The position numbers and the translations under genes are program-made. The notes beneath the pieces were generated by a model, which was not told the origin of the DNA, did not search any database, and saw only the letters and a program-made list of their open reading frames with translations. A stretch of 64,000 nucleotides of DNA from Candidatus Nomurabacteria bacterium (GTDB taxonomy: Bacteria > Patescibacteriota > Minisyncoccia > Phycocordibacterales > CAIZLB01): positions 7,278 through 71,277 of the forward strand of contig CALRFG010000001.1 of NCBI GenBank assembly GCA_943356525.1. The letters run 5' to 3'. Positions 24,860 to 42,520 of this stretch are shown here, one piece after another. Each line of letters opens with the position of its first letter. Position 1 is the first letter of the stretch.

Positions 24860-24870
24860 TTTAATTATTA

Positions 24871-26190
24871 CTAGAGGTCGTATTTCCACAAAGTTAAAGT
24901 CTCTTTATCTTGAAATAACAGATATTTGTTTGTACTAGATATGTTCATTTTATATATATCTATAGGTACTATAACCTGATCTTGTAATGAGACAATAAGT
25001 CTAAAGCCCCCTGTTTCAGCATCAATCGACCATATATTATCACCAAAAGATATATTATTTTTATACCATGCGTCTGGATAAGGTGCTTGCTCTAGTCTTT
25101 GTGGTATACCACAGTATATTATTTTAGAATCAGAGCCCCAAACACATTTATCTACTATGGTGGCTTGATTTAAATACGTTGAATTTTTCGCTTTTATGTC
25201 ATATATGAATGTTTCCAAAGTGTTATTTAATATTTCATTGTATATAACCTTCTTGCCATCAGGTGACATAAGTGTGTTAAAACCGTATTTTTCACCCAAA
25301 ATATAAGTGTTTTTAGAGTTACCGTCTGGGTTAAGTGTGAATAAATAACCTTTAAAATAAGCCGAAGGTTTTGTTGTCAAAGCAACTACTGTTTTATTTA
25401 CGTACTGTGATAACCACTCTGATATAGTAGTATTTATTGTATTTATCCTAACAACACCATCTATATTAGAAACAACACCACCACCAGATTTGTTTATAAA
25501 ATAGAATATTTTTTTAATAGATCCTAAAAAAGATATATTATTTGCATCAATGTTTATATTTTTAACCTCAGCTTTATAAATAGTTGATGATGAAAACTCC
25601 TTTATTAGCTTCATGTATGCAGTAGAGATTGTCTCATTATCATTAGCTAAAGTTCTTATAATCAAAGAAGAACTATCTGCAAAAAATACCTCTTCAGCTC
25701 CAGGTGAGGTATAGTTAGAAATCTTTACAATATCTGTTGTAGAAGCTATATTTTCATATATATGACCTGTTTTACGATCCCAAAAGTAAATATATTCTTG
25801 ATTTTTTAATATTTTTTTATTTTTAATATCTTTTACAATATCCTTTGTTGATGTTGATTTATTTGTACTTGTTGATATAACCTCTATATCTTTATATACA
25901 AAATCAAAACCTGAAACAGGTTCATTCCATAGTTGTATAAGTCTTGGTTTTTCTGATGCTGTTTCTGTTGGATTTTCTACAACCTCTTCATTTGCAAATG
26001 TTTCAACGTTTGTAGATGTTGAAACTCTTGTTTGAAAAGGGGTTCTATTTCTATCTATATTTGTAACATCCCCACCATTTGTCTTTATTAGTGTTTTAGA
26101 TTTTTGAAAAAAACTATAACCAAAATATACACCTAAGCCTAATATTAGTATTGTTAAAGTAAAAATTATTTTTTTTATAGTATTTTTCAT
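24871..26190 (-). CDS. hypothetical membrane-anchored extracytoplasmic protein
   Basis: 439 aa with an N-terminal signal anchor. Downstream partner of the 3D-domain paralog. Confidence 0.5.
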   Translation of the reverse strand: MKNTIKKIIFTLTILILGLGVYFGYSFFQKSKTLIKTNGGDVTNIDRNRTPFQTRVSTSTNVETFANEEVVENPTETASEKPRLIQLWNEPVSGFDFVYKDIEVISTSTNKSTSTKDIVKDIKNKKILKNQEYIYFWDRKTGHIYENIASTTDIVKISNYTSPGAEEVFFADSSSLIIRTLANDNETISTAYMKLIKEFSSSTIYKAEVKNINIDANNISFLGSIKKIFYFINKSGGGVVSNIDGVVRINTINTTISEWLSQYVNKTVVALTTKPSAYFKGYLFTLNPDGNSKNTYILGEKYGFNTLMSPDGKKVIYNEILNNTLETFIYDIKAKNSTYLNQATIVDKCVWGSDSKIIYCGIPQRLEQAPYPDAWYKNNISFGDNIWSIDAETGGFRLIVSLQDQVIVPIDIYKMNISSTNKYLLFQDKETLTLWKYDL

Positions 26191-27472: not shown

Positions 27473-27494
27473 GTGTTGATTATATCAGATTATT
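26678..27494. repeat. ~817-bp near-perfect direct repeat, copy 1 (5' part of the gene plus promoter)
   Basis: Identical to 28557..29373, as shown by the identical overlapping ORFs 27018..27206 and 28897..29085, 1879 bp apart. Ends 22 nt upstream of the ATG. Confidence 0.85.
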
Positions 27495-28059
27495 TCAATT
27501 GATTGTATTGTTTTGTTATTTCTTGTTTTTTTGCTGATGAAAGATTTTCATACTCACCACTTAATTCTACATACCATTGAAATATTAAATAAACATTTGC
27601 TTTAGTTTTTTTAATGTCACTGCTTGTATTTATAATTTTTATCAATTCTGATGAGTTTTTTGATATAAAAGGTCTCCAAGCTTCCAACAAAACCTCATTA
27701 TCTGCCGATTCAGATAAAGATAAAGCTTGACTTAATAGCTCAGGGTTTTTTGTTATCTCCCAGTTGAATAAAATTTTATTTAGATTGTTATATTCAACAT
27801 CTTCAACGCCGTCCTTGTAACTTACAACATTGACATCTAAATTATTTTTTAACAATGTTGATGTATCATCTAATTTTTTATCACCCAATGTTTCATTTTT
27901 TCCAAACACTACCCTATCAGATATAACTGTTTGTGTACTTGTTGATACCTCTATGTTTAACTGTGTTTGTTTTTTATTATTTACGTAAAAATAAGAAAAA
28001 ATTATTAAAAACGATATTAATATTATTATGATTATTCTTATAAATTTTGTATTTAACAT
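27490..28059 (-). CDS. hypothetical membrane-anchored protein between the two paralogs (candidate immunity/partner protein)
   Basis: 189 aa with an N-terminal TM anchor. Directly downstream of paralog B. Confidence 0.45.
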   Translation of the reverse strand: MLNTKFIRIIIIILISFLIIFSYFYVNNKKQTQLNIEVSTSTQTVISDRVVFGKNETLGDKKLDDTSTLLKNNLDVNVVSYKDGVEDVEYNNLNKILFNWEITKNPELLSQALSLSESADNEVLLEAWRPFISKNSSELIKIINTSSDIKKTKANVYLIFQWYVELSGEYENLSSAKKQEITKQYNQLK

Positions 28060-28070: not shown

Positions 28071-29351
28071 TTATTTTCCAACAATTATTGAACCTTTACC
28101 CAAAGCTGTATAGGTTTGTATTGCTCTCCAAAACCTTTGCTGTGTTGCCAAATCTCCGACAATACCTATACAACCAATTGTACCAGGTCCACCTCCATCT
28201 GGGTGTATTCTTAGTTCTGTTCTTTGTGTATTTGTCCTCGGATCAAGTTGTATATCGTTTAGGTCACATGAATATCCAAAACCACTTACAAACATTGTTG
28301 GTTTAGATGCTATATCTGTTCTTATACGGCAATTTGTTATTGTATAAGTACCAAATGGTAAATATCCCTCACCCCCACCACCTGATCTAAAAGGAAAAAC
28401 TTCACCTGATATGTTTAGAACACCACCACTTGCTCTAGCTTGCATTAAGGTTGGATTTTCTATTGAATTTATTTTTGCGTATGCTATTCCTGACTGCATA
28501 CTTGACATCGGTAATCCATAATTTCCATAAGCATCCACAATCGACCCACCCCCAGCACCTCCTAAATACGGACTATTTGGTACACTTGGTCCATAAAGCC
28601 CTGGAACATTAACACTCTGCTGTAAACCTTCAACATTTGCAAAGCTTGTAGAATATGTACCCTCCTTCAATCCTTGGGCTGCTTTAGCTATACCCCCATC
28701 AATACTATTCTCAGTATCAAGTTGTCCTGGATTAAAGTTAAAAGCCACAAGTTGTTTGTTTACTGTATACAATATGGTATATGACAGTAAGCCTAAAGCC
28801 AAAGCTATTAAACTATTTTGCAATCTCTTTTTAGCACCTCCTTTTATCTGACCAGTTGCCTCCTCTGTCATATATTGTATACCTGAAACAGATATATTGA
28901 TAACAGATAATATTATTATGATTGATATCAAAAGTGTAAACAACATTTTCAACAACCCCTCAGTCCCACTAGCCACTTTAATACAAGTTATCTTACCTCC
29001 TTCCTTGGTGTCTCTGTTTGGAACCTCAACAACACCAAGACTCACTGCCCCTGGAAAAGTCTTGTCTATACCAGAAAAAGGTTGATAAAGTTTCTTATTT
29101 ACATAATCACAGTTTTTTGTAGTTGGAAATATTGTTGCAAGTATCGAACCTTCAGGTGCTGCCCAATCCACAAATTTATCAGCAAACCCTTTTTCTTGAG
29201 TTGGGGTGGAGGCTTGTTTTGGTGCTGCGGCATCTAGCCTCATTTGACCTGGTACAGCTTGGGGAACTTGTGCCAAAACATCATCACCACCCAAAAGCAA
29301 AACAAAAATCAACACAAGTATTTTTACAAAATTGAATAAAGGTTTATCCAT
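28071..29351 (-). CDS. membrane protein, paralog B: conserved N-terminal module plus C-terminal L,D-transpeptidase/Tlde1-like (H...GC) domain
   Basis: 426 aa. The N-terminal 265 aa match the 26216 gene. The C-terminus has ELRIHPDGGGPGTIGCIGIVGD, a His...Gly-Cys pattern reminiscent of YkuD/DUF2778 catalytic motifs. Confidence 0.55.
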   Translation of the reverse strand: MDKPLFNFVKILVLIFVLLLGGDDVLAQVPQAVPGQMRLDAAAPKQASTPTQEKGFADKFVDWAAPEGSILATIFPTTKNCDYVNKKLYQPFSGIDKTFPGAVSLGVVEVPNRDTKEGGKITCIKVASGTEGLLKMLFTLLISIIIILSVINISVSGIQYMTEEATGQIKGGAKKRLQNSLIALALGLLSYTILYTVNKQLVAFNFNPGQLDTENSIDGGIAKAAQGLKEGTYSTSFANVEGLQQSVNVPGLYGPSVPNSPYLGGAGGGSIVDAYGNYGLPMSSMQSGIAYAKINSIENPTLMQARASGGVLNISGEVFPFRSGGGGEGYLPFGTYTITNCRIRTDIASKPTMFVSGFGYSCDLNDIQLDPRTNTQRTELRIHPDGGGPGTIGCIGIVGDLATQQRFWRAIQTYTALGKGSIIVGK

Positions 29352-29373
29352 GTGTTGATTATATCAGATTATT
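28557..29373. repeat. ~817-bp near-perfect direct repeat, copy 2
   Basis: See 26678..27494. Confidence 0.85.
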
Positions 29374-30382
29374 TATTACTTGTTTCTATTATATAAGTAA
29401 CACTTCTTGTTTGAAGTATTGAATTTTCATTTTTAATTTCTACTGACATTCTTGACCTGTCATTATTTGTTTTCTTTTTAAAAGAAAGTTCATTCAGGTT
29501 TGTATTAATTTTTACATCATTTATATACCATGTATATAATCCAGAAAAAACCGTTGAAAAAGAATAATATAAAGGATAAGAAACTATAGTTGCTTCTAAC
29601 TTATTCATGTAGTAAGTATTTTTTATTGTTTTATTAAACAAAACTCCAAGTAATGGTGATTTTTCATAAGTTATAATTTCACTAGGTAGGGCTCTTACTT
29701 TTAACAAAGCTTCATTATTGAAAGAGTTTTTTTGTGTATTTTTATCGTTAAAACTTTTTATACTTGAGAGTGTAACTTTAAATAAAGGTTCTATCCCCAA
29801 GATGTCATCCTCATATACAAATGAAGAATATCCAACCCCTGATTGATTTCCAAGGACTGTATCATCTTTTTTCCATGTGTAGTTGTTATACTTATTTGTT
29901 AAAGGATTTTCTTGATCAAGATTTATTGCGTTTAAAACAAGTGTTGCCTCTGGTGTAAAAAATGATTTACCTCTATAAAAAGGGGGTGTATATGTTCTAG
30001 ATTCCCAGACTATTATGATTTTTTTTGGATCAAATTCAAAAGTTTTTTCTATAATCAGACCATTTTCTGTAGTTATTTTTAGATCTATCTTAGTTTTTTC
30101 AGATAAAACAAAACTAGCTTTGTTTATACCTACCCCATCTTTAAAAACCACTCCGTTAATTTTCCATATAAAACTCGTGTTTTGTATAGGTGTACCATAC
30201 ATCTGAGCCTCAAGTTCTACAGTATCACCTATGTTGGGTCTAGTAGGTGTTATGTTGTAATAAACTTTTTCTTTTAGTTCTGGTATGTCACCAGGTTTGA
30301 TCAACTCGGCAAAGGTTTTTGTTGAAACACTCAAGTATAAAACAAATATAGTTATTAAAAATATTTTAGAGAAAAAACTCAT
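29369..30382 (-). CDS. hypothetical secreted protein (T4SS locus)
   Basis: 337 aa with a signal peptide. TATAAT 7 nt upstream of the ATG. Confidence 0.5.
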   Translation of the reverse strand: MSFFSKIFLITIFVLYLSVSTKTFAELIKPGDIPELKEKVYYNITPTRPNIGDTVELEAQMYGTPIQNTSFIWKINGVVFKDGVGINKASFVLSEKTKIDLKITTENGLIIEKTFEFDPKKIIIVWESRTYTPPFYRGKSFFTPEATLVLNAINLDQENPLTNKYNNYTWKKDDTVLGNQSGVGYSSFVYEDDILGIEPLFKVTLSSIKSFNDKNTQKNSFNNEALLKVRALPSEIITYEKSPLLGVLFNKTIKNTYYMNKLEATIVSYPLYYSFSTVFSGLYTWYINDVKINTNLNELSFKKKTNNDRSRMSVEIKNENSILQTRSVTYIIETSNK

Positions 30383-30401
30383 GTTATAATTATATCAGAT
30401 T

Positions 30402-30827
30402 TTAATTTGAATAGTAGGAATAGATTACATTTAACGTCATAAAAGGTAAAAAACTTATAAAAGGAATATATTCAAGTATAGACGTTGCACCCATAGATCC
30501 TATTTTTTTCATATTAAACTTCACACCAGAGAAGAAAAACCAAGGTATAAATATCACATTGTATAGTATTGATATAAGTATACTTATTGCAGGAATTAAA
30601 CTAAGTAGATCAAGTATTATAGAGACAGCCAACATACATATAAAATTTAATGTTATTGGTTTTTTTGTGATATTTTTAGCTACATTTTTAGCATTAGTGA
30701 TCTGATTTACAGGGTTCTTGTCTCCACCTATTTTTTCACCAACCCTTTCGATTTTACTAGGACTATTTAATTCAGAAGTATCCCTCCTCTCCACTCTACT
30801 TGGCCTCTCACCTAATTGTGTAGCCAT
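30402..30827 (-). CDS. hypothetical small membrane protein overlapping the virB4 3' end
   Basis: 141 aa with two or three TM segments. Overlaps the upstream gene by 16 nt. Confidence 0.45.
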   Translation of the reverse strand: MATQLGERPSRVERRDTSELNSPSKIERVGEKIGGDKNPVNQITNAKNVAKNITKKPITLNFICMLAVSIILDLLSLIPAISILISILYNVIFIPWFFFSGVKFNMKKIGSMGATSILEYIPFISFLPFMTLNVIYSYYSN

Positions 30828-32629
30828 GTTTTTTGATTATCTTTATTGGCATTTAATATCTCTTCTGGATTTGATGTGATGATTTTATTTTCAGTCTCTG
30901 ATGCGACAACTTTCAGTGCAACATGTTTTTGTCCTGCAAAAAATATTCCCTCCCCGACACCTGACTCTAATAATAAATATTTCTCTTCATTTGTAAGGTT
31001 AAATGTCTTTTGAACCATATCTATCGATGTTGGTGACTGTTTTAACATAAATTGCATAGATGAGTTTGTGATAATAGGCAATCCATAAGGAGATCTCAAA
31101 AAGTCTTCTACATCTTGAGTTATTGTTGATATACCTAGATAGTATTTTCTACCTCTTTTAGCTAAGCCAAACAAGAAAGATGCTGTATCTTCTGATTTCA
31201 TCATCCACCACGCTTCATCAACAACCAAAAGTCTCTTTTTTATTTCTTTACGTACTAAACTCCAAATATGATGCATAACTATATACATAGCTATAGGTTT
31301 AAGCTCATCTTCCATATCACGAAGAGAAAATACCACTAATTTTTTATTTATATCCAAGTTTGAAGGTCTGTTTATAAATCCTGACCATGTTCCTTTTGTA
31401 TATTTTGTAAGTCTCTGTACCAATGACTCCCCTCCTTCAAGTCCAGCGAGTACCAACTCAAAGTCTGACATCAAAGGTGGTTCTATAGCTGAAAAATTGG
31501 CTTCAGGGGTGATATCTTTAAGTGCATAGGTTTCAGATATAGCTCTATCTATAATAGAATCCTCCTCAGGTGTTAAACCTCCAAGCATAAGACGGAAAAG
31601 TCCAACCAGGTTTACTATATGTGATCGTAAAACATCAGACGGAGACTCATCCTCATGTGGCATAGGTAAGTCAAAAGGGTTGATATGATTTTCTGATGTT
31701 AAAGATATATTAAAATATCTACCACCTAGAGTCTCTGTCATCTTCTCATACTCTCTTTCAGGGTCAAGAACTATAACATCAACATCAAACATAAGAGATC
31801 TTAATATCTCAAGTTTAGTGGCATAAGATTTTCCAGAACCAGATTTTGCAAAAGTAACAGAGTTATAGTTTTCAAGAGAAAATCTATCAAATAACACCAA
31901 ACTGTTATTGTGACGGTTCAACCCATATAAAATACCTCTACCTTCTGTAAGGTCAAAAGAAATAAATGGAAATATACTTGATAGTGGTGATGAGTTTAGT
32001 TTTGAATGAACATCTAATTCATCAGTAGATACTGGTATAGTTGTCCTAAAACCTTGCTCTTGTTGAAACAATGCAGGTTTGATAAAAACAAGAGAAGCCT
32101 CAAGTGTTGATTTTATTTCTGACTCTACCCTGTTGAGTTCTTCCTCACTGTCACCGTATATAGATATATAAATCCCAACATCAAATATTTTTTCTTGTGC
32201 TTGTTGTAGGTTGTCACGCAACTGCTCTAGGTTTTGATATGAGGCATCAAGCTGTGGATCACGAACTAAACCCTTTTCCTCTCTGTCGTTGATTTGACTT
32301 TGTACCTCAGCAACTTTTTTCTTAAATTCATTTAACACAGTTGATGTGTCTATGGGTTGTATAAATATCGATATATCAAAGGCTTTATCTAGATTAATGA
32401 TTGGTGAAAACCAAGAGTCTGATAAAAACTTTGGATAAGACATTACAAAAAAACTTCTAACTAACTTCTCACCTAGGTTTAAAGTCTTAGGACTTATTTT
32501 TAGAGCGGAAGGTGCAATAATATCTTTAAGTTCAAGTACTGCCGATCTATAAATATCTTTCGGTAATATAGACGTTATTTGTTTTATTTGGTTGTTATTA
32601 TTTGTTTTTAAAAAATCTAGAAATCCCAT
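30812..32629 (-). CDS. virB4: VirB4/TrbE/CagE-family type IV secretion ATPase
   Basis: Walker A FAKSGSGKSY. DPEREY (aligned to the VirB4 DPKGEY). Walker B LLVVDEAWWM. C-terminal RKYYLGISTITQDVEDF. Confidence 0.8.
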   Translation of the reverse strand: MGFLDFLKTNNNNQIKQITSILPKDIYRSAVLELKDIIAPSALKISPKTLNLGEKLVRSFFVMSYPKFLSDSWFSPIINLDKAFDISIFIQPIDTSTVLNEFKKKVAEVQSQINDREEKGLVRDPQLDASYQNLEQLRDNLQQAQEKIFDVGIYISIYGDSEEELNRVESEIKSTLEASLVFIKPALFQQEQGFRTTIPVSTDELDVHSKLNSSPLSSIFPFISFDLTEGRGILYGLNRHNNSLVLFDRFSLENYNSVTFAKSGSGKSYATKLEILRSLMFDVDVIVLDPEREYEKMTETLGGRYFNISLTSENHINPFDLPMPHEDESPSDVLRSHIVNLVGLFRLMLGGLTPEEDSIIDRAISETYALKDITPEANFSAIEPPLMSDFELVLAGLEGGESLVQRLTKYTKGTWSGFINRPSNLDINKKLVVFSLRDMEDELKPIAMYIVMHHIWSLVRKEIKKRLLVVDEAWWMMKSEDTASFLFGLAKRGRKYYLGISTITQDVEDFLRSPYGLPIITNSSMQFMLKQSPTSIDMVQKTFNLTNEEKYLLLESGVGEGIFFAGQKHVALKVVASETENKIITSNPEEILNANKDNQKTWLHN

Positions 32630-32638
32630 ATGTATATA

Positions 32639-33262
32639 TTACATCTTTATTGGTTTTTCTGCATCTCCTGGATTAAATATTCTATAAAATAATTCAACTA
32701 ACTCTTCACTACCAAGACGAGCTATCTTTACACCACAACGCGCTAAGCCTTGCTCCACTACAGATATCCTCTGTTCTATTTGATTTTTTATTTCCTCGAA
32801 GTCATCATTCTTACTTTTTTGATTTTCAAATTCATCTTTCTTTTTAAACATTCCTGTTATACTTTTTGTTGCATTTGATATGGGTGCATATGGAACAACT
32901 ATAAAAAAACTTTTAGTCATTATATTTGACCCTTCTGTTAATCCTTTTATAAACATAATATATTCACTAATCTGAACTTTCATCAAATCACTTGTTTGAG
33001 CCCTAAGCCTATCCTCTAACAGCGCTACATAAGGTCTTATATCAAGTTTTCTTGATTGTATATAAGTTTGAACTGTAAAATCTAATGAGTTAAGGAAATT
33101 TTGAAATTGATAAATAACAGATTCTTGTTCTTCTGTTGACTTTAATGCAAAGTTAATTGATGTTGCCAAAACAACAGCTCTCATTGAGCCGTCCTTCAAT
33201 ATCATAATACCTTCACGTATTTCATTGATTGGTACAAAATCTTGTGCAGGGTTAGTCTTCAT
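32639..33262 (-). CDS. hypothetical soluble protein of the T4SS locus
   Basis: 207 aa. The annotated ATG overlaps the 3' end of tRNA-His; the alternative Met (MILKDGSM, ~33205) may be the real start. Confidence 0.45.
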   Translation of the reverse strand: MKTNPAQDFVPINEIREGIMILKDGSMRAVVLATSINFALKSTEEQESVIYQFQNFLNSLDFTVQTYIQSRKLDIRPYVALLEDRLRAQTSDLMKVQISEYIMFIKGLTEGSNIMTKSFFIVVPYAPISNATKSITGMFKKKDEFENQKSKNDDFEEIKNQIEQRISVVEQGLARCGVKIARLGSEELVELFYRIFNPGDAEKPIKM

Positions 33263-33335
33263 GGGCGGCTAGAGAGAATCGAACTCTCGACTCAGGATCC
33301 ACAAACCTGGGTTTTACCACTAAACTATAGTCGCC
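33262..33335 (-). tRNA. tRNA-His (GTG)
   Basis: Cloverleaf folds. Extra 5' G-1 pairs with discriminator C73. Anticodon loop TTGTGGA. T-arm GAGAG-TTCGATT-CTCTC. One A-C mismatch in the acceptor stem. Confidence 0.75.
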
Positions 33336-33380
33336 ATACCTATATTTATAGCAGATATATAGGTATTATTCAATTTTTTC

Positions 33381-33806
33381 TCACTGTTCTTTTTTTGTTG
33401 GATATACACTTTTGTTTACGTCCAAACTCCAAGCCAGATCTTTTAGTTTACTTTGTGACAAAGATGGTGCTAGGAATGAGTCAGCTACACTTGTATCTTG
33501 TACTTTCTCTTCGGCCGTAACAGGTTTATCTATTTTTTTCCATATATATAACTTTGATTTTGTCATATATGAGAAACCGGCAGCTAAAACATCTATAAAA
33601 CTTTTATTATTTATTTTAACAAAAGCTAAAGATCCTGCTAATGCCCAAAGTATAAACATGAGTATAATACCAGGAAAAAAACCAAATACTTTATATATAA
33701 TATATGTACCACCAATACCGCCGAGTATATATATAAATTGCTTAAATGTTAAAGGTCCTATGATTTTACTTTCAAACTCTATAAACTGTGGTACTTGATA
33801 TCTCAT
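33381..33806 (-). CDS. small two-TM membrane protein, VirB3/PrgI-like (putative T4SS component)
   Basis: 141 aa with two hydrophobic helices near the N-terminus (IYILGGIGGTYIIYKVFGFFPGIILMFILWALAG). Sits in the T4SS gene neighbourhood. Confidence 0.4.
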   Translation of the reverse strand: MRYQVPQFIEFESKIIGPLTFKQFIYILGGIGGTYIIYKVFGFFPGIILMFILWALAGSLAFVKINNKSFIDVLAAGFSYMTKSKLYIWKKIDKPVTAEEKVQDTSVADSFLAPSLSQSKLKDLAWSLDVNKSVYPTKKEQ

Positions 33807-33810
33807 ATTG

Positions 33811-34614
33811 TTATTCTAATGGTTCTCTATAGATGTCGTCAAGATTTATAGTTATTGGTTTTTTAATCTCAAGTTTTTGTTCTATATTTGTTTGGATTTT
33901 TATAGGCATTGGTTGAGGCGGTATTTCTGTTTTTGTTATTTCTGGAATAATATCTTCTGTGTGAAATGGTTTCTCTATATGTGTGTTCTGTAGTTGATGG
34001 TCCACAGGGATAGGTTGTGATGCGGGTTGTACAGGTTTAGGCGTTAGTTCTATGGTGAATGATTTTGTCGGTGTGTTTATTTCGTTTAGCATATCGTCTT
34101 TTTCTTTATTGATGTCGGTTGGGATTTCTTTATCTTTTATAACTTCTTCTATAACTTCTTCTTCATCTTCAGGACTAGCATCATCCTCTTCTCTTATTTT
34201 ATCTAGTTCGGCATAGTGTTTTGCATAGGCTTCGTTTTCTGCACGGGCTTCTTTTTCATCATCGTCTAGTAGAAAGTTTTCTATTTCTTCTTCTTCTTTA
34301 TCTCCCTCATCCATATCAACCAAATCTTCTCTTATTTTTTTTAAAATCTTTAAATCAACTTCCAGTAATATATCTGCAGCCATTTCTGAATTTATATGTG
34401 CATCACCAAACATATGGCTTATAAAATCTGGCGCATCTATATCGCCAAACATAAGCTTCATTGTACAGTCTTCAAGTACTTGGGTTTGGTCTATGTGTAG
34501 TTTGAATTGAGTTTTGATTTGTACAAGGGATTCTTCCCAATTTGACATACTAATAGCATACTGAAGATTTTCAGGTAGAGTTTTTAATTTTTCATCATAA
34601 TATGTTTTGTTCAT
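33811..34614 (-). CDS. hypothetical acidic protein
   Basis: 267 aa, Glu/Asp-rich centre, no TM. Confidence 0.4.
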   Translation of the reverse strand: MNKTYYDEKLKTLPENLQYAISMSNWEESLVQIKTQFKLHIDQTQVLEDCTMKLMFGDIDAPDFISHMFGDAHINSEMAADILLEVDLKILKKIREDLVDMDEGDKEEEEIENFLLDDDEKEARAENEAYAKHYAELDKIREEDDASPEDEEEVIEEVIKDKEIPTDINKEKDDMLNEINTPTKSFTIELTPKPVQPASQPIPVDHQLQNTHIEKPFHTEDIIPEITKTEIPPQPMPIKIQTNIEQKLEIKKPITINLDDIYREPLE

Positions 34615-34624
34615 AGTTTTTTAA

Positions 34625-37618
34625 TTATTTTTCTTTTGCTTTTTCTGCTGCTGCCGCTTTTTTTGCTAAGTCTTCATTCTTTTTTATTAAATCTTTATTA
34701 ACTTTTTCACGAACCTCTTTTACTTTTTCACCAGCATCATATACTTTTTCTTCAAGATCACGTCTAATATCAGATGGTATGTTTCCAGAATATGAATGCT
34801 CGGCATCTTCAAGGTTTCTTCTTGCTGTATTGAATTCCCTACTTTCTTTACCTGCTTTTTTATCCAAACCTGGTGATGTAGGGTCTTTAATCATTTCATC
34901 TATTGTTTTATCTTCAGGTAAAAGGGCTAATTTTTCTTTTATCTTTTTAATCATTGCTTCTGAATCCTTCTCATTCTGATCATTCTGGTATTTTCCCTCT
35001 TCTGCCTTGAACGCTGCCTCTGCTGCTTTAGCCTTAGCCTCTGCTTTTTGTGTTCTATAAGGTTTCCATAAACCTTTTTTATTAATTTTTGTAGCACCTG
35101 CACCTGTAGTGTGATATTTTGATACATCTCCTAAACCTTTTGCAACCTCTTTGTTGTCAAGTTTAAACTTTATACCAGTAATATTACCACCTGCGTCTCT
35201 TATTTCTTCACGTACCAATGCTTTATCCATTATTGCTGTAAGGTGTTTTGTACCATCTTTATTTTCTTTGTGAATTATATCTTTATTACCAAATGAAACT
35301 TTTGCTCTCTTCTCTATTTGCTTTTCTACGTACTCTTTATATTTATCAGCTTTTGCTGCATCAACTCCTATTGCACCATTTTTCTTTTCCCACTGCTCTT
35401 GTGTATCCGGTTTATATTTCTCAGCTGCCATTTTTATTAGGTTTTCTTCGTCCTCTTTTGAACCTTTTATTATTTTATTGTCTATTTCTTTTCTTTCCTT
35501 AGTTGTTTGAGCTTGTAATGCAACTGCTTTTCTTGCAAGAGCTGAACCTACAATCGGTACACCCCTTAATCCTAATGCACTATTTCTTAAAGCATCAGCA
35601 GCTGTCTCTTTTAGGTTAGCGCCAGGATTTGAAAATCCATCACCTGCACCTTTCCAAAAACCATTACCTCTAGATGCACTTCTGGCACCGTAACCTAGAC
35701 CCGTAACTGCGCGAAGAGGAACTTTTATCGCACCTACAGATGCACCCAATGTAGCCGCTCCCACCTTCTTAGCTAAGCCTGATGTCATCTTTGTTTGCCA
35801 ACCTGCAAATTTATTTGCTACACCGGTACCCAATTTATTTCCAATAGCACCATCACCTCCATCTCCCACATGCTTAACTCCGTAACTAATAGCTCTCATT
35901 AAAAACATTATAACTATACAGAAAACAGCTACAAGAGATATAGAAGACCCTAAGCCCGACGCTCCTACAGGTGGACTACATATTAGACTTAAAAGGCTTC
36001 CTCCATCTTTTTGTATTGTTGCCAATTTATCAAAAACAATAATAGCTATCAATATTTGAAAAAGATATAAGATTGGAAATAATAAAACATGCTGCATTTC
36101 TGACCACCATTTTCTACTTATTTGATTCATTCTTTCATTCCCAGGGATCACATAACCCCAAACCCAAAGAGGTGATCTTATAAATAAGAATATTATATTT
36201 ACTAAACGTATCAAAAATAATATAGCTGCTAGACCCAATGCTAATATAAGCACTATTAAAAATATTGTACCCAAAATAGAAACAGTAATCAATGATGTTG
36301 GATTGTTAGCACAAGTACCCTCGGCCTGTAGTGTTTTAGGTGTAAATATTTCTGAAACATTATAAAGACCCGTTAAACCTACAGTGTTCATAACCCTCAA
36401 AGATATAGACGATTCTTTATTAGCTGAGCTACTTTTCATTACTTCGTATATTTTTAAGGAAACAATATTTGACCCATCAACCATAAGTTTTGCGGCAAAT
36501 AATGAAAAATTCATAAGTATCGCAAAAATAACAACATTAGTTAGAATTTTTCTTGCATTGTACTTTGCATCATTTCCTATAAGTATCTGAACAGCTGTAA
36601 AAAGTAGTATAAAAATAAAAGTCATGTTTAATATATCTCTGATAAATGACCAAGTTATTTCAACGACACCCAGCTTTTTTAAAAACTCTGCAGAGTTTAC
36701 TGAAAGCTCCAAAGAATAATCAAAAAGTGTACCAACTAAATATGCAGCAAAAGAAGCAAGTTTAAATATAACATTTGTTAAGATTGCTACACCCCATAAC
36801 ATACAATTAGGTGACCAAAAATTAGTAACACCGCAATCAGGTTCTGAAACAGGTTGATTATAAGACGCAGCTTGCCTTTCTTTTTCGGTTATTATTTTTT
36901 GGTTTACACCACGATTGTTCAAAGCTCCAGTTTCTTGAAACTCTGCAGCATCTACAAGTGCTTGTGCTACTGCTATCTGCTGAGGAGTACCGCCATTTGA
37001 TCTTACATTTTCCAGTTCTTGTCTGGCTTCATCTGCTTTTTTTGTTGTCTCATCAACTTTTTGCTGTAAAGACTCTTCTGCAGCTCTTGCATTCCACAAT
37101 ACATTTTTATCATTTATAGTTGTCCCTTCGGGTCTACCTTGCGCTTTATCTATGATGTTTAGTTGCTCATTGGCTTCGACTGATTCTTTTACAGTTGGTT
37201 TTAATACTGTATAAAAATTACCACCTGTACCGTTATCTCTCCTTTTTGTTGCATATGCAATATTAACATCCTTACCTGGTTTTTCTTTATATACAAAAGT
37301 ACTTACATTTGAACTATTTTCTCTGTATACATTATATTTTGTTATATTATCAGCAAATGGAACCAAATCAGCTTTAAGCTTAACTTTTAATGCATCAATC
37401 TCTTCATCTGTTAATTGTGGGTTGGAAGGGTTTGCGTTAAATAATGTAAAATAAGCCTCATCTACAATATAACCACTTGCCTTATCATTATCATTCAAAT
37501 ACCCTTTTGTGTCTCCTACTACATCAACTTTTGCTTCTACTAGTTTTGGAATAACGAACATCGAACATAAAAAAAATACCAACAAAAAAATATTTTTCTT
37601 AGAATTAAAATTAGACAT
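34625..37618 (-). CDS. large polytopic membrane protein, VirB6/TrbL-like (putative T4SS channel subunit)
   Basis: 997 aa. Signal peptide, ~270-aa extracytoplasmic domain, 5-7 TM helices, then a long Lys/Glu/Ala-rich coiled-coil-like C-terminal tail. Confidence 0.45.
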   Translation of the reverse strand: MSNFNSKKNIFLLVFFLCSMFVIPKLVEAKVDVVGDTKGYLNDNDKASGYIVDEAYFTLFNANPSNPQLTDEEIDALKVKLKADLVPFADNITKYNVYRENSSNVSTFVYKEKPGKDVNIAYATKRRDNGTGGNFYTVLKPTVKESVEANEQLNIIDKAQGRPEGTTINDKNVLWNARAAEESLQQKVDETTKKADEARQELENVRSNGGTPQQIAVAQALVDAAEFQETGALNNRGVNQKIITEKERQAASYNQPVSEPDCGVTNFWSPNCMLWGVAILTNVIFKLASFAAYLVGTLFDYSLELSVNSAEFLKKLGVVEITWSFIRDILNMTFIFILLFTAVQILIGNDAKYNARKILTNVVIFAILMNFSLFAAKLMVDGSNIVSLKIYEVMKSSSANKESSISLRVMNTVGLTGLYNVSEIFTPKTLQAEGTCANNPTSLITVSILGTIFLIVLILALGLAAILFLIRLVNIIFLFIRSPLWVWGYVIPGNERMNQISRKWWSEMQHVLLFPILYLFQILIAIIVFDKLATIQKDGGSLLSLICSPPVGASGLGSSISLVAVFCIVIMFLMRAISYGVKHVGDGGDGAIGNKLGTGVANKFAGWQTKMTSGLAKKVGAATLGASVGAIKVPLRAVTGLGYGARSASRGNGFWKGAGDGFSNPGANLKETAADALRNSALGLRGVPIVGSALARKAVALQAQTTKERKEIDNKIIKGSKEDEENLIKMAAEKYKPDTQEQWEKKNGAIGVDAAKADKYKEYVEKQIEKRAKVSFGNKDIIHKENKDGTKHLTAIMDKALVREEIRDAGGNITGIKFKLDNKEVAKGLGDVSKYHTTGAGATKINKKGLWKPYRTQKAEAKAKAAEAAFKAEEGKYQNDQNEKDSEAMIKKIKEKLALLPEDKTIDEMIKDPTSPGLDKKAGKESREFNTARRNLEDAEHSYSGNIPSDIRRDLEEKVYDAGEKVKEVREKVNKDLIKKNEDLAKKAAAAEKAKEK

Positions 37619-37658
37619 ACTTAACTAAAGTATACTACAAATAAATTAAAATATTAAA

Positions 37659-38858
37659 TTAATTAGTGTTTACTTTCTCTAATGTTTTATCAATAGCTAC
37701 TGTTATAAGTTGATCAACTAGTGCTGTTACAACTTGATCAAATTTATCAACTAAAAGAAGTCTATTTGTACCAATTTCTAAAGATGACTGTGCCTTCCCT
37801 AGTATGATTTTACCAGGTGTCGTTATAGGACATTTTGATTTATCTTTTTCTGTACCTTCACATTTTCTAAAACTTAGAATACCGTCATTCCAGTTCAACT
37901 CTGTAGTCTTACTTAGTTTAACTGCAGCTACCTGACTGTATAAGTTTTCATTTGTTCTAAAATATGTATCATAAGGGTTGTTGTTTGGGTTTTGTGTTAA
38001 CTGAAACCAAGTATTCCAACCACCACCTTCGGTAAAATTACCACCTAAAAATGCATTTAATTGACCCGGGTTTTGATCAAAAGGGCAACCGTTAAAATTA
38101 TTTTGACCTTGTTGACCATATCCACCATTTTCATAACCTTGTTGACCATAATAGTTTTGTTTATTTCTTCCATATCTACTTAATATAGATGAAACTATTG
38201 TACCTTTAAAAGCACCGCATACGTTTGAGTTAACACCATATGCCAAATTCTGTATAAAAGCTCTTTTTTCTGCATTAGCAAGATCGGTAAAAAATTGATC
38301 AGGATTTGTTAAAAAAGCTGGATTACCTTCAAAACCTGTGTTAATCCACTGTATAGTAGAGTCTGCGATATATACAAGCATTGAGTTAACTATACAATAA
38401 GCCATAGCATCCCAACTGGGTAATGCCATTGATCCTATACCCCCTATACCTAAAACTGTACCAACCCTAGCACTAGTTTCTGTTGTTATATTTGCCTTAA
38501 CAATACCGCTTTCTGCTGTAGGTACATTTAAAAGACTGTCTGTTACAGTACTTTCTGCACCTGTTACAGCTGATACTATTGCCTTTGATAAAATTTGTGA
38601 ACCAATGCAACTTGCTACACCTCCTATGGCCTGAGCTATCGCCGGGTTTGAGTTTGGAGATGAGCTTGCTTGTGAAGTTGCAAGTACACTATCTTGTATT
38701 TGACTATTTATATACTCTGGAGTCAATGTATTTTCATTAACTACAATTGCCCTAGGTGCATTGGTAGTATCCACTGTCTGTGCAAAAACTATAGCAGGAC
38801 TAAAAACTAAAATAAATATTATTATCGAAACTATTATTTTTTCTAAAGTTTTTTTCAT
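37659..38858 (-). CDS. hypothetical secreted protein (T4SS locus)
   Basis: 399 aa with a signal peptide (MKKTLEKIIVSIIIFILVFSPAIVFA). Gly/Gln/Asn-rich segment. Confidence 0.5.
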   Translation of the reverse strand: MKKTLEKIIVSIIIFILVFSPAIVFAQTVDTTNAPRAIVVNENTLTPEYINSQIQDSVLATSQASSSPNSNPAIAQAIGGVASCIGSQILSKAIVSAVTGAESTVTDSLLNVPTAESGIVKANITTETSARVGTVLGIGGIGSMALPSWDAMAYCIVNSMLVYIADSTIQWINTGFEGNPAFLTNPDQFFTDLANAEKRAFIQNLAYGVNSNVCGAFKGTIVSSILSRYGRNKQNYYGQQGYENGGYGQQGQNNFNGCPFDQNPGQLNAFLGGNFTEGGGWNTWFQLTQNPNNNPYDTYFRTNENLYSQVAAVKLSKTTELNWNDGILSFRKCEGTEKDKSKCPITTPGKIILGKAQSSLEIGTNRLLLVDKFDQVVTALVDQLITVAIDKTLEKVNTN

Positions 38859-38863
38859 TTTTT

Positions 38864-39706
38864 TTATTCTAGTTTTATAGATGTGTTATTTACATTATTT
38901 GATATCCAAAAAAATCCAGGATCACTCTCAGTATAATCTATTTTATTAAGTATAATGGTTTTTTTTATTTTTTCAAAACTTATCAAAACTTCATTTGTTG
39001 CAACTTTAATTTTGTTTAGTCCTAAAAGAGCTTTTGCTGGATCTGTTAATTGTTGATCCATCATGATTAAACCTTCACTATATTTTTTTAAACCATTAAT
39101 TAAAATTATATGATTATCAGATAAAGATTCAGGTACTTCTGTCATTGTTAAAAGTTCTGCTGTTTTCTTATATATACTTGCAATATATGGGGTTTTATTT
39201 GTTTTATTATTTAATGAGTTTATTCCTTTATTTGTAGCATTTTGTATAACAGCAATATTATTTCCGTACACCTTTAGATTATTTATATTTGAAGAAACTA
39301 TTTTTATATCACTGTAAATTACAGGGTTTTCTAATTCATTTTTTGTTTTTAAAACACTTTCGGTAGCATCTAAAACATCATCCTTATTAATTTCACCAGA
39401 AGCATTGTATTTTATATATTGAGTAAAAATATCTTTTGATAGTCCATCACTTAAATTGTCGGTACTATTTTTTTTAAAACTATCTGAAAACCTTTCAAGA
39501 TATTTAACATTTTCATTAACAACTGTTTCTAATATATTAGCTTGATATTGATCAGCTTTTGTTTGCATTTTTCCACTAGAGTCAGCAACTACATTATCAG
39601 AGTTATTAGCTTCTATTTTATTTTTATAAGTTACGGCAAAAACTATTATTAGTGATACCACACAAACTGAAATAATGTTTAAAGTCTTCTTATTCATTAA
39701 TATCAT
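38864..39706 (-). CDS. hypothetical membrane-anchored protein (bitopic, VirB8/TcpC-like topology)
   Basis: 280 aa with a single N-terminal TM and an extracytoplasmic domain. Confidence 0.4.
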   Translation of the reverse strand: MILMNKKTLNIISVCVVSLIIVFAVTYKNKIEANNSDNVVADSSGKMQTKADQYQANILETVVNENVKYLERFSDSFKKNSTDNLSDGLSKDIFTQYIKYNASGEINKDDVLDATESVLKTKNELENPVIYSDIKIVSSNINNLKVYGNNIAVIQNATNKGINSLNNKTNKTPYIASIYKKTAELLTMTEVPESLSDNHIILINGLKKYSEGLIMMDQQLTDPAKALLGLNKIKVATNEVLISFEKIKKTIILNKIDYTESDPGFFWISNNVNNTSIKLE

Positions 39707-40502
39707 TATATACCAATTTTGTTATATAAATCCAATCAACAGGTATTATGTTTTCCGGTCTTTCTTTTTTAAACTTATCATCAGTTATTTTTAAGGTAGA
39801 ACCAAGCTGTTTTCTTTTACTGTTGAATGCTTTTTTTGCTGTTTCCCAGTATTTTTTTTCTATATATTTTATACTCGCTTTTGTCTCATTTTCAAATATG
39901 TTTTTGTTTATATTTTTTATTATCAAAACAGCAGAATCAACTTTCGGCGCTGGGACAAAATTTCCTTTTGACACTTTCATAAAAATGTAAGGTTCGCCAT
40001 ATGTTTTAATACCCAAAGAAAATAAACTCATCTTTTTGTCCATTGCCCTGTCCGCTATCTCTTTTTGAACCATAAAAATCATAGTTTTTGGTTGATTTTT
40101 GGCTTCTAGGAACTTTTTAAATATAAAACCGGTGAGATAATAGGGTATGTTTGCGATTATTACATAATCTTGAGATATTTTATCTTGTTTTTTGTCATCT
40201 ATGTCAAAAAGCCTTATATCTTGGTGTATTATTTCCAGATTTTTAGTTGTTTTAATATTTTTTTCAAACCTTTCATTCAACAAAGGTATTGCCCTATCGT
40301 CTGTTTCTATACAAATAAGCTTATTTTTTGGGAATATTTTAAGTATTTCAGCGGTCAACTCCCCTGTTCCTGGGCCTATTTCTATGATATTTGTATTTTC
40401 ACCTATATACTGCTTGGCTTCTTCAACAATTTTCTTTATTATGGTCGTATTTTTCAGGAAATTTTGACCCAATGATTTTTTAGCTTCTAAGTTATATTCC
40501 AT
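39690..40502 (-). CDS. rsmA: 16S rRNA (adenine1518/1519-N6)-dimethyltransferase RsmA/KsgA
   Basis: LGQNFL and EIGPGTGELT motifs. The track start at 40520 adds 6 residues; MEYNLEAKKSLGQNFL is the likelier start. Confidence 0.85.
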   Translation of the reverse strand: MEYNLEAKKSLGQNFLKNTTIIKKIVEEAKQYIGENTNIIEIGPGTGELTAEILKIFPKNKLICIETDDRAIPLLNERFEKNIKTTKNLEIIHQDIRLFDIDDKKQDKISQDYVIIANIPYYLTGFIFKKFLEAKNQPKTMIFMVQKEIADRAMDKKMSLFSLGIKTYGEPYIFMKVSKGNFVPAPKVDSAVLIIKNINKNIFENETKASIKYIEKKYWETAKKAFNSKRKQLGSTLKITDDKFKKERPENIIPVDWIYITKLVYNDINE

Positions 40503-40513
40503 ATTACCCCAAT

Positions 40514-42520
40514 TTACCAATCTATCTCAGATAAGTCTAGTAAATCGCGTTTATCGCCATTGTCTTTGTTACCATTATTTGACCCATAAACTTTGTTATA
40601 TGTGGTGTTATCATTGTGATCTATCAGTTTTTCATTTATATCTTTTATAAAATTTGACATAGTTCTTACTTGACGTGCTCCAAATATTGTTCTTATTATT
40701 GCATTTGATAGATGCAACTTTTTCTTTGCTCTGGTTAGGGCTACATAGAAAAGCCTTCTCTCCTCCTCATCATCTCTGTCTGCACTGGTTTCATTTGCTC
40801 TTTCATATGGAAATAAACTTTCTTCCATTCCAACTATAAAAACATAATCATACTCTAAACCTTTTGATGCGTGAACCGTCATAAGTCTAACTTTGTTTTG
40901 TTGATCTTTTTTATCAAGCTCATCTTGATCTGACATAAGTGAAGTTTCTTCAAGGAAAAGTTCTAAAGCTTCTTCTGGTTCAAATCCATCATATTTTGTT
41001 GTTAAGGAAATAAGTTCTTTTATGTTTTCTAGCTTTTCTAAATCATCCTCACTTTTTGTTAAATATGATTTTTCTATACCAGAATTTTTAAAAATATATT
41101 TAAAAACCTCAGAAAGTTTTTCTGTTTTTGTTTTATTTTCTATAACATCCAGTAATGCAAAATACTCCTTAACTTTTATTTGCGTTGCTTGGGTTAAATC
41201 TTTTATTCTATCTTCAACTATTTTTATTAAACTAACTGCACCTATACCACGTGCTGGAGTATTAATTGTTCTTTTAATATCCGTAATCGAATCTCTGTTA
41301 ACAGCAGCTTTAAGATATGAAATCATATCCTTTATTTCTTTTCTTTCAAAAAACCTTACTCCTAAAACTTGATATGGAACATTAAACATAAGACATGATT
41401 CTTCTAATACACGAGATTGGAAGTTTGCACGATAAAGTACAGCTATTTCTTTTGGCTCTACGCCCTGCTGTATAAGGCTTTTTATTTTTCCTATAACATA
41501 TCTTGATTCATCAACTTCATCAAAACCTGTATAAACCTCTATCTTATCTCCAGATTCTTTTTGTGTAAATAAATTTTTCTTCTTTCTATAAATATTTTTC
41601 TCAATAACATTGTTTGCTGCCTCTATAATATTTGCAGTTGATCTATAATTTTCCTCAAGAAGAACCATTTCTGTTCCAGGAAAATCATTTTCAAATTCTA
41701 ATATATGAGAAATATTCGCACCTCTCCATGAATAAATAGTTTGATCAGCATCACCTACTACTACTATATTTTTATTTTCACCTGCTAAAAGTTTACACAA
41801 TTCATATTGTATAGGGTTTGTATCTTGATACTCATCTACATGTATATATTGCCAAAGATTATTTAGTTTTTGTTTTATTTCCGGATTCTCTTTCATTATT
41901 TTTACAGGTAAAGTAAGTAGATCATCAAAGTCTACATTTTTTTCTTTTCGTAGTTCAGCATCATACTGCGCCCAAACAGCTTGTACTGTTTCACCTAAAA
42001 AACCATCATGTCCTGATAAGACTTTGGTCGTGTATTCTGCTAAGGTTATGTTTTCACCCTTATTTTTTGATATCATATTTAAAACTTTTGAAGGCTCTAC
42101 TTTTTTAGGATCATGCCCTTTTCTTACAAGTATTTCTTTCACTTTTTTACGACTATCATCGCGGTCTAGTATGGTAAAGTTTTTATTTATACCTTGTGTG
42201 TATCCAAAATTTTTCAAAATATAAACGCCAAGGCTGTGAAATGTAGAAAGAAATGGATGCCTATTCCCTATAACGGCATGCAAGTCTCTATCACCTTCTA
42301 TCATCTGATGAACTCTTTCTCTCATCTCTTTTGCAGCCTTGTTTGTAAAAGTTATTGCTAATATGTTTTCAGGCTGTATACCACTTTTTATCAGATTAAC
42401 TATACGTGTGGTTACTGTTTTAGTCTTTCCTGCCCCGGCACCAGCGATTATAAGTATCGGTCCATTGATCTTTAATACTGCTTTTTGTTGAGCGGGATTT
42501 AATTGGTCTATATAATTCAT
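40514..42520 (-). CDS. pcrA: UvrD/PcrA-family ATP-dependent DNA helicase
   Basis: Walker A AGAGAGKTKT. TFHSLG. Helicase motifs QDTNPIQ and VGDADQTIYSWRGA. Confidence 0.9.
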   Translation of the reverse strand: MNYIDQLNPAQQKAVLKINGPILIIAGAGAGKTKTVTTRIVNLIKSGIQPENILAITFTNKAAKEMRERVHQMIEGDRDLHAVIGNRHPFLSTFHSLGVYILKNFGYTQGINKNFTILDRDDSRKKVKEILVRKGHDPKKVEPSKVLNMISKNKGENITLAEYTTKVLSGHDGFLGETVQAVWAQYDAELRKEKNVDFDDLLTLPVKIMKENPEIKQKLNNLWQYIHVDEYQDTNPIQYELCKLLAGENKNIVVVGDADQTIYSWRGANISHILEFENDFPGTEMVLLEENYRSTANIIEAANNVIEKNIYRKKKNLFTQKESGDKIEVYTGFDEVDESRYVIGKIKSLIQQGVEPKEIAVLYRANFQSRVLEESCLMFNVPYQVLGVRFFERKEIKDMISYLKAAVNRDSITDIKRTINTPARGIGAVSLIKIVEDRIKDLTQATQIKVKEYFALLDVIENKTKTEKLSEVFKYIFKNSGIEKSYLTKSEDDLEKLENIKELISLTTKYDGFEPEEALELFLEETSLMSDQDELDKKDQQNKVRLMTVHASKGLEYDYVFIVGMEESLFPYERANETSADRDDEEERRLFYVALTRAKKKLHLSNAIIRTIFGARQVRTMSNFIKDINEKLIDHNDNTTYNKVYGSNNGNKDNGDKRDLLDLSEIDW

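Follow-up and report, generated by a model that had tools for sequence, protein, structure and literature searches.

A 64,000-nt stretch of contig from a Candidatus Nomurabacteria bacterium (hereafter the window, to which all coordinates refer) carries a minus-strand gene block that is probably the vertically inherited, chromosomal type IV secretion system (T4SS) of the Patescibacteria in its Paceibacteria form, derived from the mating-pair formation class FATA (MPF-FATA), without a nearby relaxase or coupling protein, and serving host attachment or exchange, not DNA transfer. A T4SS of this kind has already been published for Patescibacteria (PMC10633639; PMC12102498; PMC12857230), and the locus adds no new kind of system. 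A sequence-only reading of the same DNA had proposed a minimised Gram-positive-type T4SS used in host interaction rather than conjugation, and the profile, synteny and fold results agree with it. The ten-gene minus-strand block drawn in that reading is real and tightly packed, but its interval (29369-39706) holds nine open reading frames (ORFs) and the T4SS unit reaches further downstream, past 29369 to 24871, with genes for two pilin-like paralogs, for one small membrane protein and for a conserved protein of 439 aa. The whole forms an unbroken head-to-tail string of minus-strand genes from 42520 to 24871, the upstream end of which consists of the housekeeping genes for UvrD/PcrA (40514-42520) and KsgA/RsmA (39690-40520), the latter abutting the T4SS block. 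A Pfam and NCBIfam scan left six of the nine ORFs of the interval without a match. Related loci were taken from 80 listed species-level genomes, all metagenome-assembled genomes (MAGs) from the CPR (candidate phyla radiation), with a VirB4 72-95% identical to that of the window, and counts of presence rest on these 80 loci unless stated otherwise.

The 605-aa ORF at 30812-32629 represents the C-terminal two thirds of a VirB4 ATPase. The three motifs quoted for it in the sequence-only reading, among them Walker A and B, are present (FAKSGSGKSY at residue 260, DPEREY at 289 and LLVVDEAWW at 467), and the ORF scores 370.8 bits against NCBIfam NF045971 (VirB4-like conjugal transfer ATPase, CD1110 family; cut-off 325), so that the assignment holds up to a profile search. 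In agreement with this, it matches Pfam PF19044 (P-loop_TraG) at E 7e-24 and is 25% identical to residues 225-772 of PrgJ of the plasmid pCF10 over 561 aa (E 2e-40); the best-scoring VirB4 models are those of the MPF-FATA families CD1110 and Mbov_0397. The N-terminal domain of VirB4 is found as a polypeptide of its own, encoded by the 207-aa ORF at 32639-33262, which matches the NCBIfam TrsD/TraD model NF041427 (E 5e-8), carries a precomputed assignment to Pfam PF26593 (TraC-like), and covers N-terminal model positions 2-120 of NF045971 and 5-178 of TIGR00929. In the sequence-only reading the identity of the 207-aa ORF had gone unrecognised.

The 207-aa and 605-aa ORFs lie in the same frame and are separated by one TAA and 9 nt. 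Such an in-frame stop would favour a reading of the locus as the decaying remnant of a conjugative element, with VirB4 as a pseudogene; we reject the latter, as a separate TrsD-like ORF (187-272 aa) with its own start codon precedes virB4 in 79 of the 80 loci, and the split fits TrsD, a family known as a separate protein in the pGO1 subclass of MPF-FATA, the monoderm conjugative T4SS class (PMC12102498). VirB4 is thus split into a TrsD-like N-domain and an ATPase, and is not decayed. The identity of 72-95% among relatives moreover implies strong purifying selection on VirB4, which again speaks against a remnant.

Two membrane subunits would form the platform beneath the ATPase. Directly upstream of TrsD, the 141-aa ORF at 33381-33806 encodes a small membrane protein that had been taken for VirB3/PrgI-like, and it does match Pfam PF12666 (PrgI), by a narrow margin (27.5 bits against a cut-off of 27.0, E 4.7e-6). 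A PrgI occupies this position in 78 of the 80 loci, at 38-82% identity. The second subunit, p997 (34625-37618, 997 aa), begins with a signal peptide, exposes some 240 aa as an exo-domain, has roughly six hydrophobic helices and ends in ∼400 aa of charged helical tail. The protein itself gives no Pfam match, and a PDB sequence-profile search yielded coiled-coil noise only. Pfam PF04610 (TrbL/VirB6) is matched by 5 of 30 positional orthologs (best E 6e-5), and distant homologs match PF04610 (P0139, P0142, P0144) and PF19590 (P0141, P0144). The AlphaFold2 model of p997 (pLDDT 77) shows an extramembrane β-sandwich with a long helical hairpin, a helical transmembrane bundle and a long charged helical tail, and its top four Foldseek matches in the PDB are all TrwI/VirB6 chains of R388 (E 0.09-0.12, probability 0.80-0.95). 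The structure prediction that had been suggested for this protein is compatible with its description as VirB6/TrbL-like with an exo-domain and tail, and on the evidence of orthologs and fold we regard p997, with moderate confidence, as an ‘extended VirB6’-like subunit. Orthologs are present in 61 of the 80 loci; the profile alignment of p997 with PrgH of pCF10 (hhalign) is weak, at a probability of 7%.

The third element of the apparatus consists of pilin-like proteins. Directly after the gene for the secreted protein p337, the 426-aa pilA (28071-29351) encodes a signal peptide, a Cys-containing N-domain, a VirB2/T4SS_pilin-like hairpin, a Gly/Pro linker and a YkuD/Tlde1-like C-domain, whereas the 418-aa pilB (26216-27472) joins a pilin module of the same type to an unrelated C-domain of ∼143 aa. 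The module common to both consists of the signal peptide, the Cys-containing segment, two hydrophobic helices with a K/R-rich loop between them, and the Gly/Pro-rich linker. Over this part 275 of 279 N-terminal residues are identical and the DNA includes a 100% identical repeat, whereas the C-terminal parts are dissimilar. Pfam T4SS_pilin (PF18895) is matched by 16 of 40 database homologs. According to a hidden Markov model of the hairpin, p337 is followed directly by such an ORF, or by two of them, in 69 related loci; among 77 positional pilin ORFs T4SS_pilin is matched by 68 and TrbC/VirB2 by five. The ‘adjacent effector-like paralogs’ of the sequence-only reading are therefore VirB2-like pilin modules with added C-terminal domains, and form part of the T4SS rather than being its neighbours.

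The composition thus obtained resembles that of the monoderm MPF-FATA systems (pCF10 Prg/Pcf, pGO1/pSK41 Trs and CTn2 CD1110), with which the locus shares a CD1110-family VirB4, PrgI and a TrsD-like N-domain as in pGO1, and the gene order VirB6-VirB3-VirB4-wall enzyme is collinear with prgH-I-J-K of pCF10. In contrast to pCF10, the locus has no coupling protein PcfC, no relaxase PcfG, no detectable counterpart of the VirB8-like PrgL and PrgD, and no PrgB adhesin, and its VirB6 is extended to 997 aa as compared with the 266 aa of PrgH. VirB2-like pilins occur here but not in the monoderm conjugative systems. Agreement is closer with the T4SS of the Patescibacteria. A survey of 3,035 Patescibacteria genomes placed their VirB4 in a monophyletic clade inside MPF-FATA and found TrsD to accompany it most often (Quinonero-Coronel et al. 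2025, PMC12102498); it also reported PrgI, VirB6 and VirB2-like pilins near virB4, an almost complete absence of relaxases, and, in Paceibacteria, a T4SS locus near dnaA, dnaN, rnpA, rpmH and ksgA (PMC12102498). The locus of the window has in common with these an MPF-FATA-type VirB4, a separate TrsD, PrgI/VirB3, a VirB6-like subunit, VirB2-like pilins, no relaxase or type IV coupling protein (T4CP) nearby, and the dnaA-ksgA setting. It differs from the published systems in its pilins. Where these have an array of 2-11 divergent short pilins, with an average identity of 25% within an array, two pilin genes are found here (one in most relatives), with N-terminal parts that are 99% identical and with C-terminal domains of 140-150 aa.

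The setting of the unit illustrates its chromosomal nature. A perfect hairpin with a 20-bp stem and T-runs on both strands (24815-24861) lies between the convergent genes p439 and yidC, and bounds the T4SS transcription unit as a terminator for both directions. After the block come rpmH-rnpA-yidC and dnaA-dnaN, in the same order in relatives. The window has six perfect DnaA boxes (TTATCCACA), of which five fall in the dnaA-dnaN and dnaA-rpmH spacers (21975-22024 and 23473-23500); these clusters mark a bipartite oriC and, as they surround dnaA, place the end of the T4SS unit 1.4 kb from the origin. From uvrD to p439, the 18-kb block occupies the minus strand to the right of oriC, an arrangement found alike in relatives. 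Its transcription therefore runs towards the origin and meets the replication fork head-on. Its negative GC skew tracks gene orientation and not the expectation for a leading strand, and its GC content (29-36%) is in the range of the remaining window.

The identical locus is present on 12 metagenomic contigs, and VirB4 relatives at 72-95% identity occur in at least 577 species-representative genomes. Where submitter names are informative they read Paceibacterota, Parcubacteria, Taylor-, Zambryski-, Kaiser- or Wolfebacteria; many third-party (TPA_asm) MAG records from bulk submissions carry the name ‘uncultured Candidatus Saccharibacteria’, which may be a generic label. The closest relatives are most likely Paceibacteria/Parcubacteria, not Saccharibacteria. 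The gene order UvrD-KsgA-(p280)-p399-p997-(p267)-PrgI-TrsD-VirB4-(small membrane protein)-p337-pilin gene(s)-p439-YidC-DnaA is kept across the 80 loci, and the housekeeping context beside oriC is the same in all relatives with enough flanking sequence. Identity drops steeply away from the motor, from 72-95% for VirB4 to 51-85% for TrsD, 38-82% for PrgI and ∼20-45% for the other proteins. On the basis of synteny, VirB4 identity, DnaA boxes and GC content, the locus is chromosomal and vertically inherited. In this it is unlike the monoderm conjugative systems, in that it belongs to the chromosomal core and is not part of a mobile element.

These observations bear directly on the view that the block belongs to an ordinary integrated conjugative element, with its relaxase and T4CP outside the window (or, as considered above, to the remnant of one). 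All detectable T4SS parts do come from conjugative MPF-FATA families, and the window contains a tyrosine recombinase at 47795-48709 on the plus strand. This recombinase is XerC/D-like, lies 5 kb past the housekeeping uvrD, does not adjoin the T4SS and has no mobile-element context; the block shares its place beside oriC with the relatives, matches its surroundings in composition and is not flanked by direct repeats. The sequence-only reading had noted no relaxase or VirD4 in view, which is confirmed: a scan of all larger ORFs of the window gave neither a relaxase nor a VirD4/TcpA coupling protein, and tblastn with PcfC (T4CP) and PcfG (relaxase) of pCF10 gave no match in the window, nor in 86 related loci taken together with 10-kb flanks, whereas PrgJ matched all of them. 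The tblastn result stands for one T4CP and one relaxase query, and for the neighbourhood and not the whole genome; within it, 80 relatives have no relaxase or T4CP within 10 kb. An integrated conjugative element or its remnant is thus already largely refuted, and we regard it as highly improbable.

The C-terminal domains of the pilin-like proteins set this locus apart and were examined across the relatives. At least 100 aa follow the hairpin in 63 of 76 positional pilin ORFs (median 187), and a minority of these extensions match known families, with one or two cases each for SLT/SLT_3, NlpC/P60-CHAP, peptidase M15, YkuD and 3D, besides TIG. The C-domain of pilA is confidently modelled with an L,D-transpeptidase/Tlde1a-like (YkuD) fold and shares 47% identity with the Tlde1_dom part of a peptidoglycan-binding protein from a proteobacterium. 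A PDB sequence-profile search with it gave no significant match. It carries the motif HPDGG...GTxGCIG, whose catalytic dyad His383/Cys394 is invariant in 29 homologs, and it falls below the Pfam cut-offs for both Tlde1_dom (PF10908, 16.5 against 30.1 bits) and YkuD (PF03734, 13.6 against 23.4 bits). The domain is therefore Tlde1-like and of the YkuD superfamily without being a Pfam member, and is a predicted enzyme, as judged from the model. Unlike Tlde1 (an antibacterial effector of the Salmonella type VI secretion system, T6SS) and further L,D-transpeptidases or carboxypeptidases of YkuD fold, among them Csd6, Pgp2 and Bd1075, it is fused to a pilin-like hairpin and linked to a T4SS and not to a T6SS. 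We found no description of a pilin-enzyme fusion architecture in the T4SS papers compared or by literature search. A link of VirB1-like hydrolases to virB4 has been reported specifically for Paceibacteria (PMC12102498), and these hydrolases may be the fusion genes described here. A separate YkuD-type L,D-transpeptidase is encoded elsewhere in the window (12622-13398, minus strand; 24.3 bits in Pfam, above the cut-off), and L,D-type stem-peptide chemistry thus has a housekeeping place as well, which may bear on self-immunity to a Tlde1-like fusion.

The C-domain of pilB (26219-26650, minus strand) belongs to a family of 82 representative clusters (P0151-P0231), in which it is almost always C-terminal in proteins of 200-750 aa, with a pilin-hairpin-like consensus upstream in the full-length alignment. 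It contains invariant Asp residues and a GSVALSPD...VDIYD motif. By eye, the D-rich motif had suggested a lytic transglycosylase of the 3D/DPBB type; no tool supported this, and the candidate was rejected. The near relatives L087, L089 and L090 share the layout pilA, small gene, pilB and p439, and relative to them the pilB C-domain of the window has been replaced. The small gene of the window, p189 (27490-28059), encodes a membrane-anchored protein with an N-terminal transmembrane segment and no family match, and its homologs (41-60% identity) occupy the same position in L087 and L089. The window, L087 and L089 have orthologous pilA C-domains and orthologous p189 genes, and neither the C-domains of pilA and pilB nor p189 were found in the 80 loci that are more distant.

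Within a genome the two N-terminal modules are 62-98.6% identical, the four genomes giving 98.6%, 96.5% (L087), 85% (L090) and 62%, whereas between genomes the identity is ∼50-68%. As the modules are more alike within than between genomes, gene conversion or repeated recent duplication is indicated. An origin of the repeat as an assembly artefact was considered and rejected, since two long assemblies hold both copies, the near relatives have the same layout, and the short assemblies (L002, L003, L004, L006 and L005) stop 40-50 codons into the first paralog, within the duplicated module, except for one that runs on for 275 codons to where the repeat ends. Because the repeat (∼28520-29351 in the window) breaks short-read assemblies, the number of paralogs may be under-counted in MAG surveys.

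The pattern of the paralogs resembles that of polymorphic toxin loci, and it may be asked whether the locus is a polymorphic toxin system, in which a constant pilin module would be joined to exchangeable peptidoglycan-targeting toxins, p189 would confer immunity, and the T4SS would deliver or present the toxins to kill or lyse hosts or competitors, much like the effectors of the Xanthomonas X-T4SS or the T6SS effector Tlde1. Consistent with such a system are the N-termini of pilA and pilB, which are 99% identical over 275 aa and followed by unrelated C-termini, and the homogenisation of the N-termini within genomes at only ∼50-68% identity between them; so are the swapped C-domain of pilB relative to near relatives, the variation of C-domains across the class, the Tlde1a-like fold of pilA with its intact catalytic dyad, and the small membrane-anchored gene kept directly downstream of pilA in near relatives. 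On the other hand, in most genomes there is one fusion gene only and a small gene downstream is lacking, and p189 is no more than a candidate immunity or accessory protein for pilA; nothing immunity-like follows pilB, the next gene, p439, being a conserved component of the system. The hairpin, too, is a membrane or pilus module and not a known toxin-trafficking domain. Peptidoglycan hydrolases, furthermore, are ordinary structural parts of monoderm T4SSs, as with PrgK, which stands beside PrgJ in pCF10. On balance we consider a toxin system unlikely, if worth keeping in mind, and it overlaps with the conserved Patescibacteria T4SS proposed here rather than excluding it. At a similarly tentative level, the pilin of the Paceibacteria T4SS could be viewed as a carrier of exchangeable extracellular domains, the module of which would be homogenised by gene conversion with a possible immunity gene between the copies, and the pilus would then be a delivery vehicle. 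Only a minority of such domains can be recognised as cell-wall enzymes (L,D-transpeptidase/Tlde1-like, SLT, NlpC/P60-CHAP, M15, 3D), most being unassigned in the way of the pilB family.

The lack of both relaxase and T4CP could also fit an uptake device, that is a T4SS importing DNA, nucleotides or other host macromolecules in the manner of Helicobacter pylori ComB or archaeal Ced, as known DNA-import T4SSs likewise dispense with both. The C-terminal region of VirB4 weakly matches the archaeal DNA import ATPase CedB (E 1.4e-10, 40.5 bits), and the best pilin-type fold matches of the hairpin are archaeal conjugative pilins; CPR bacteria must, moreover, import nucleotides and lipids, and a conduit for uptake has been suggested in a 2025 review (PMC12857230). 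The CedB score is nevertheless far from its cut-off of 700, as is that of CedD (13.9 against 600 bits), whereas the conjugative CD1110 VirB4 model is passed, and CedA, ComB7-10 and DNA-binding components were not detected in the Pfam and NCBIfam scans. In Southlakia epibionticum, competence needs ComEC as well as type IV pili, and cells survive the deletion of comEC whereas the T4SS is essential (PMC10633639, PMC12857230). An import function is, in our estimation, improbable.

The remaining genes of the unit encode proteins that are less conserved in sequence, four of them (p280, p399, p337 and p439) being specific to the lineage and either exported by Sec or anchored in the membrane. The first gene after ksgA, p280 (38864-39706), encodes a bitopic protein with an N-terminal anchor, one transmembrane-like segment (residues 8-26) and a mostly helical ectodomain. 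It is an accessory protein that evolves fast, is found in 16-23 of the 80 loci, and gives no Pfam, NCBIfam or PDB match. Next to it and directly upstream of the p997 gene, p399 (37659-38858) is a Sec-secreted protein with a signal peptide ending VFA|Q, present in 54 of the 80 loci at lengths of 293-838 aa. A PDB sequence search with p399 gave no match; its orthologs add Ig-like, F5/8 type C (discoidin) and SprB domains, and one matches DUF4141. By analogy, p399 is a plausible candidate for a surface or tip (VirB5-analogous) adhesin, as suggested by its position and surface-domain content only.

Between p997 and PrgI, p267 (33811-34614) is an acidic cytoplasmic protein (25% acidic residues, no transmembrane segment) found in 26-37 of the 80 loci and without a family match in Pfam and NCBIfam. 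A conserved N-domain of ∼95 aa is followed by a disordered D/E/P-rich middle part and a conserved C-terminal DPYREPIE-like motif, in which D260, Y262 and E264 are invariant in an alignment of 26 orthologs; this motif, behind a disordered region, looks like a short docking peptide. The gene p141b (30402-30827), unrelated to the PrgI-like ORF of the same length, overlaps the stop codon of VirB4 by 16 nt and encodes a small polytopic membrane protein of 141 aa with two or three hydrophobic segments. It evolves fast, with homologs (48-51% identity) only in near relatives, and a polytopic ORF of 110-340 aa occupies the same position in 47 of 74 loci. The Sec-secreted p337 (29369-30382), which carries a signal peptide and is β-rich (Ig/PKD/BiPBP_C-like), occurs in 76 of the 80 loci; among 29 orthologs BiPBP_C is matched by seven, PKD_3 by two and Ig_3 by two, and a PDB sequence-profile search with p337 gave weak Ig-type matches, none of them significant. 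The last gene of the unit, p439 (24871-26190), encodes a membrane-anchored protein that is kept at the same position in 64 of the 80 loci. Repeated weak TolB matches (E 0.1-0.6), together with one ortholog matching PD40 and another DUF5050, indicate that p439 is probably a β-propeller of the TolB/PD40-like type.

Beyond the unit, a LysM-LysM-peptidase M23 protein is encoded just past uvrD on the opposite strand (43064-44083, plus strand); M23 and LysM domains have been reported on VirB1-like proteins of Patescibacteria (PMC12102498). The window also encodes type IV pilus machinery, namely two PilB/T2SSE-type ATPases with MshEN, and PilC/T2SSF (13911-15857, plus strand; 55722-57734, minus strand; 61530-62753, plus strand), and a PLD-family (cardiolipin synthase-like) protein at 54614-55699 on the minus strand. 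Further ORFs belong to the families of PBP1, RuvB, the CCA-adding enzyme, NusA and trigger factor. Two large minus-strand ORFs of 993 and 943 aa (3336-6317 and 8064-10895) match no Pfam family at E ≤ 0.001, and the ORFs at 1663-2982, 45610-46671, 51513-52793 and 11420-12526 are likewise without a Pfam match.

Taken as a Patescibacteria T4SS with a role in host attachment or exchange, the unit could operate as follows. The VirB4/TrsD ATPase would dock on the platform of PrgI and VirB6, pull Sec-inserted pilin modules out of the membrane and polymerise them into a short pilus or conduit across the envelope. In a VirB2-type hairpin both termini face outward, and the C-terminal domains would consequently be displayed outside the cell, where they might, at the site of contact, cut or remodel the peptidoglycan of either the epibiont or its host. 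Export would be two-step, through Sec and then through the T4SS, as there is no coupling protein and the candidate cargo carries Sec signal peptides. In both respects the locus resembles the Ptl system of Bordetella pertussis, in which export is likewise two-step; Ptl and the VirB system of Brucella are listed among those without a T4CP (PMC12102498). Ptl differs in that it is diderm, belongs to MPF-T, includes VirB7-11 and has an AB5 toxin as its export, and its sequence relationship to the locus is limited to VirB4 and VirB6. The purpose of such an apparatus would be attachment to, or exchange with, the host, and not the transfer of DNA.

Several points weigh against this interpretation. No VirB8-like protein was found, the hhalign probability of the p280 profile against PrgL and PrgD of pCF10 being <1%, although VirB8 is seldom detectable outside class ABY1 (PMC12102498). 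According to the literature, VirD4 homologs lie far from virB4 in many Patescibacteria genomes, so that a T4CP or relaxase elsewhere in the genome is possible. The C-domain of pilB has no Pfam or PDB match, and the enzyme domains may act either on the wall of the bacterium itself, in a VirB1-like assembly role, or on that of the host. Finally, we know of no experiment on any Paceibacteria T4SS, and of no sighting of its pilus.

What is known experimentally comes from a related system. In Southlakia epibionticum the T4SS (SEML1_0006-0019) is essential for epibiotic growth, resembles Gram-positive conjugative systems, includes pilins that are essential, and has no coupling or relaxase protein that can be recognised (Wang et al. 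2023, PMC10633639). Essentiality has thus been shown by experiment for the Saccharibacteria system, whereas the locus of the window is known from sequence alone. In Paceibacteria co-cultures, the unknown genes with the highest expression include those for T4SS pilins (PMC10936435), and a T4SS with its pilus has been proposed as the conduit between epibiont and host (PMC12857230). S. epibionticum is the one species in which the Patescibacteria T4SS has been tested for this role. Across ∼70 Paceibacteria species, T4SS-linked VirB2-like proteins usually carry putatively extracellular C-terminal domains. Should the fusions turn out to be no more than assembly factors of the VirB1 type, the locus would be one more case of the published system. 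If instead the pilin does carry exchangeable domains, the locus would represent a pilin-borne polymorphic effector system and provide a mechanism by which epibionts open a feeding junction, through breaching or remodelling of the host wall. The pilA fusion in particular is a testable candidate both for the cargo of the T4SS and for the way in which an epibiont handles the cell wall of its host.

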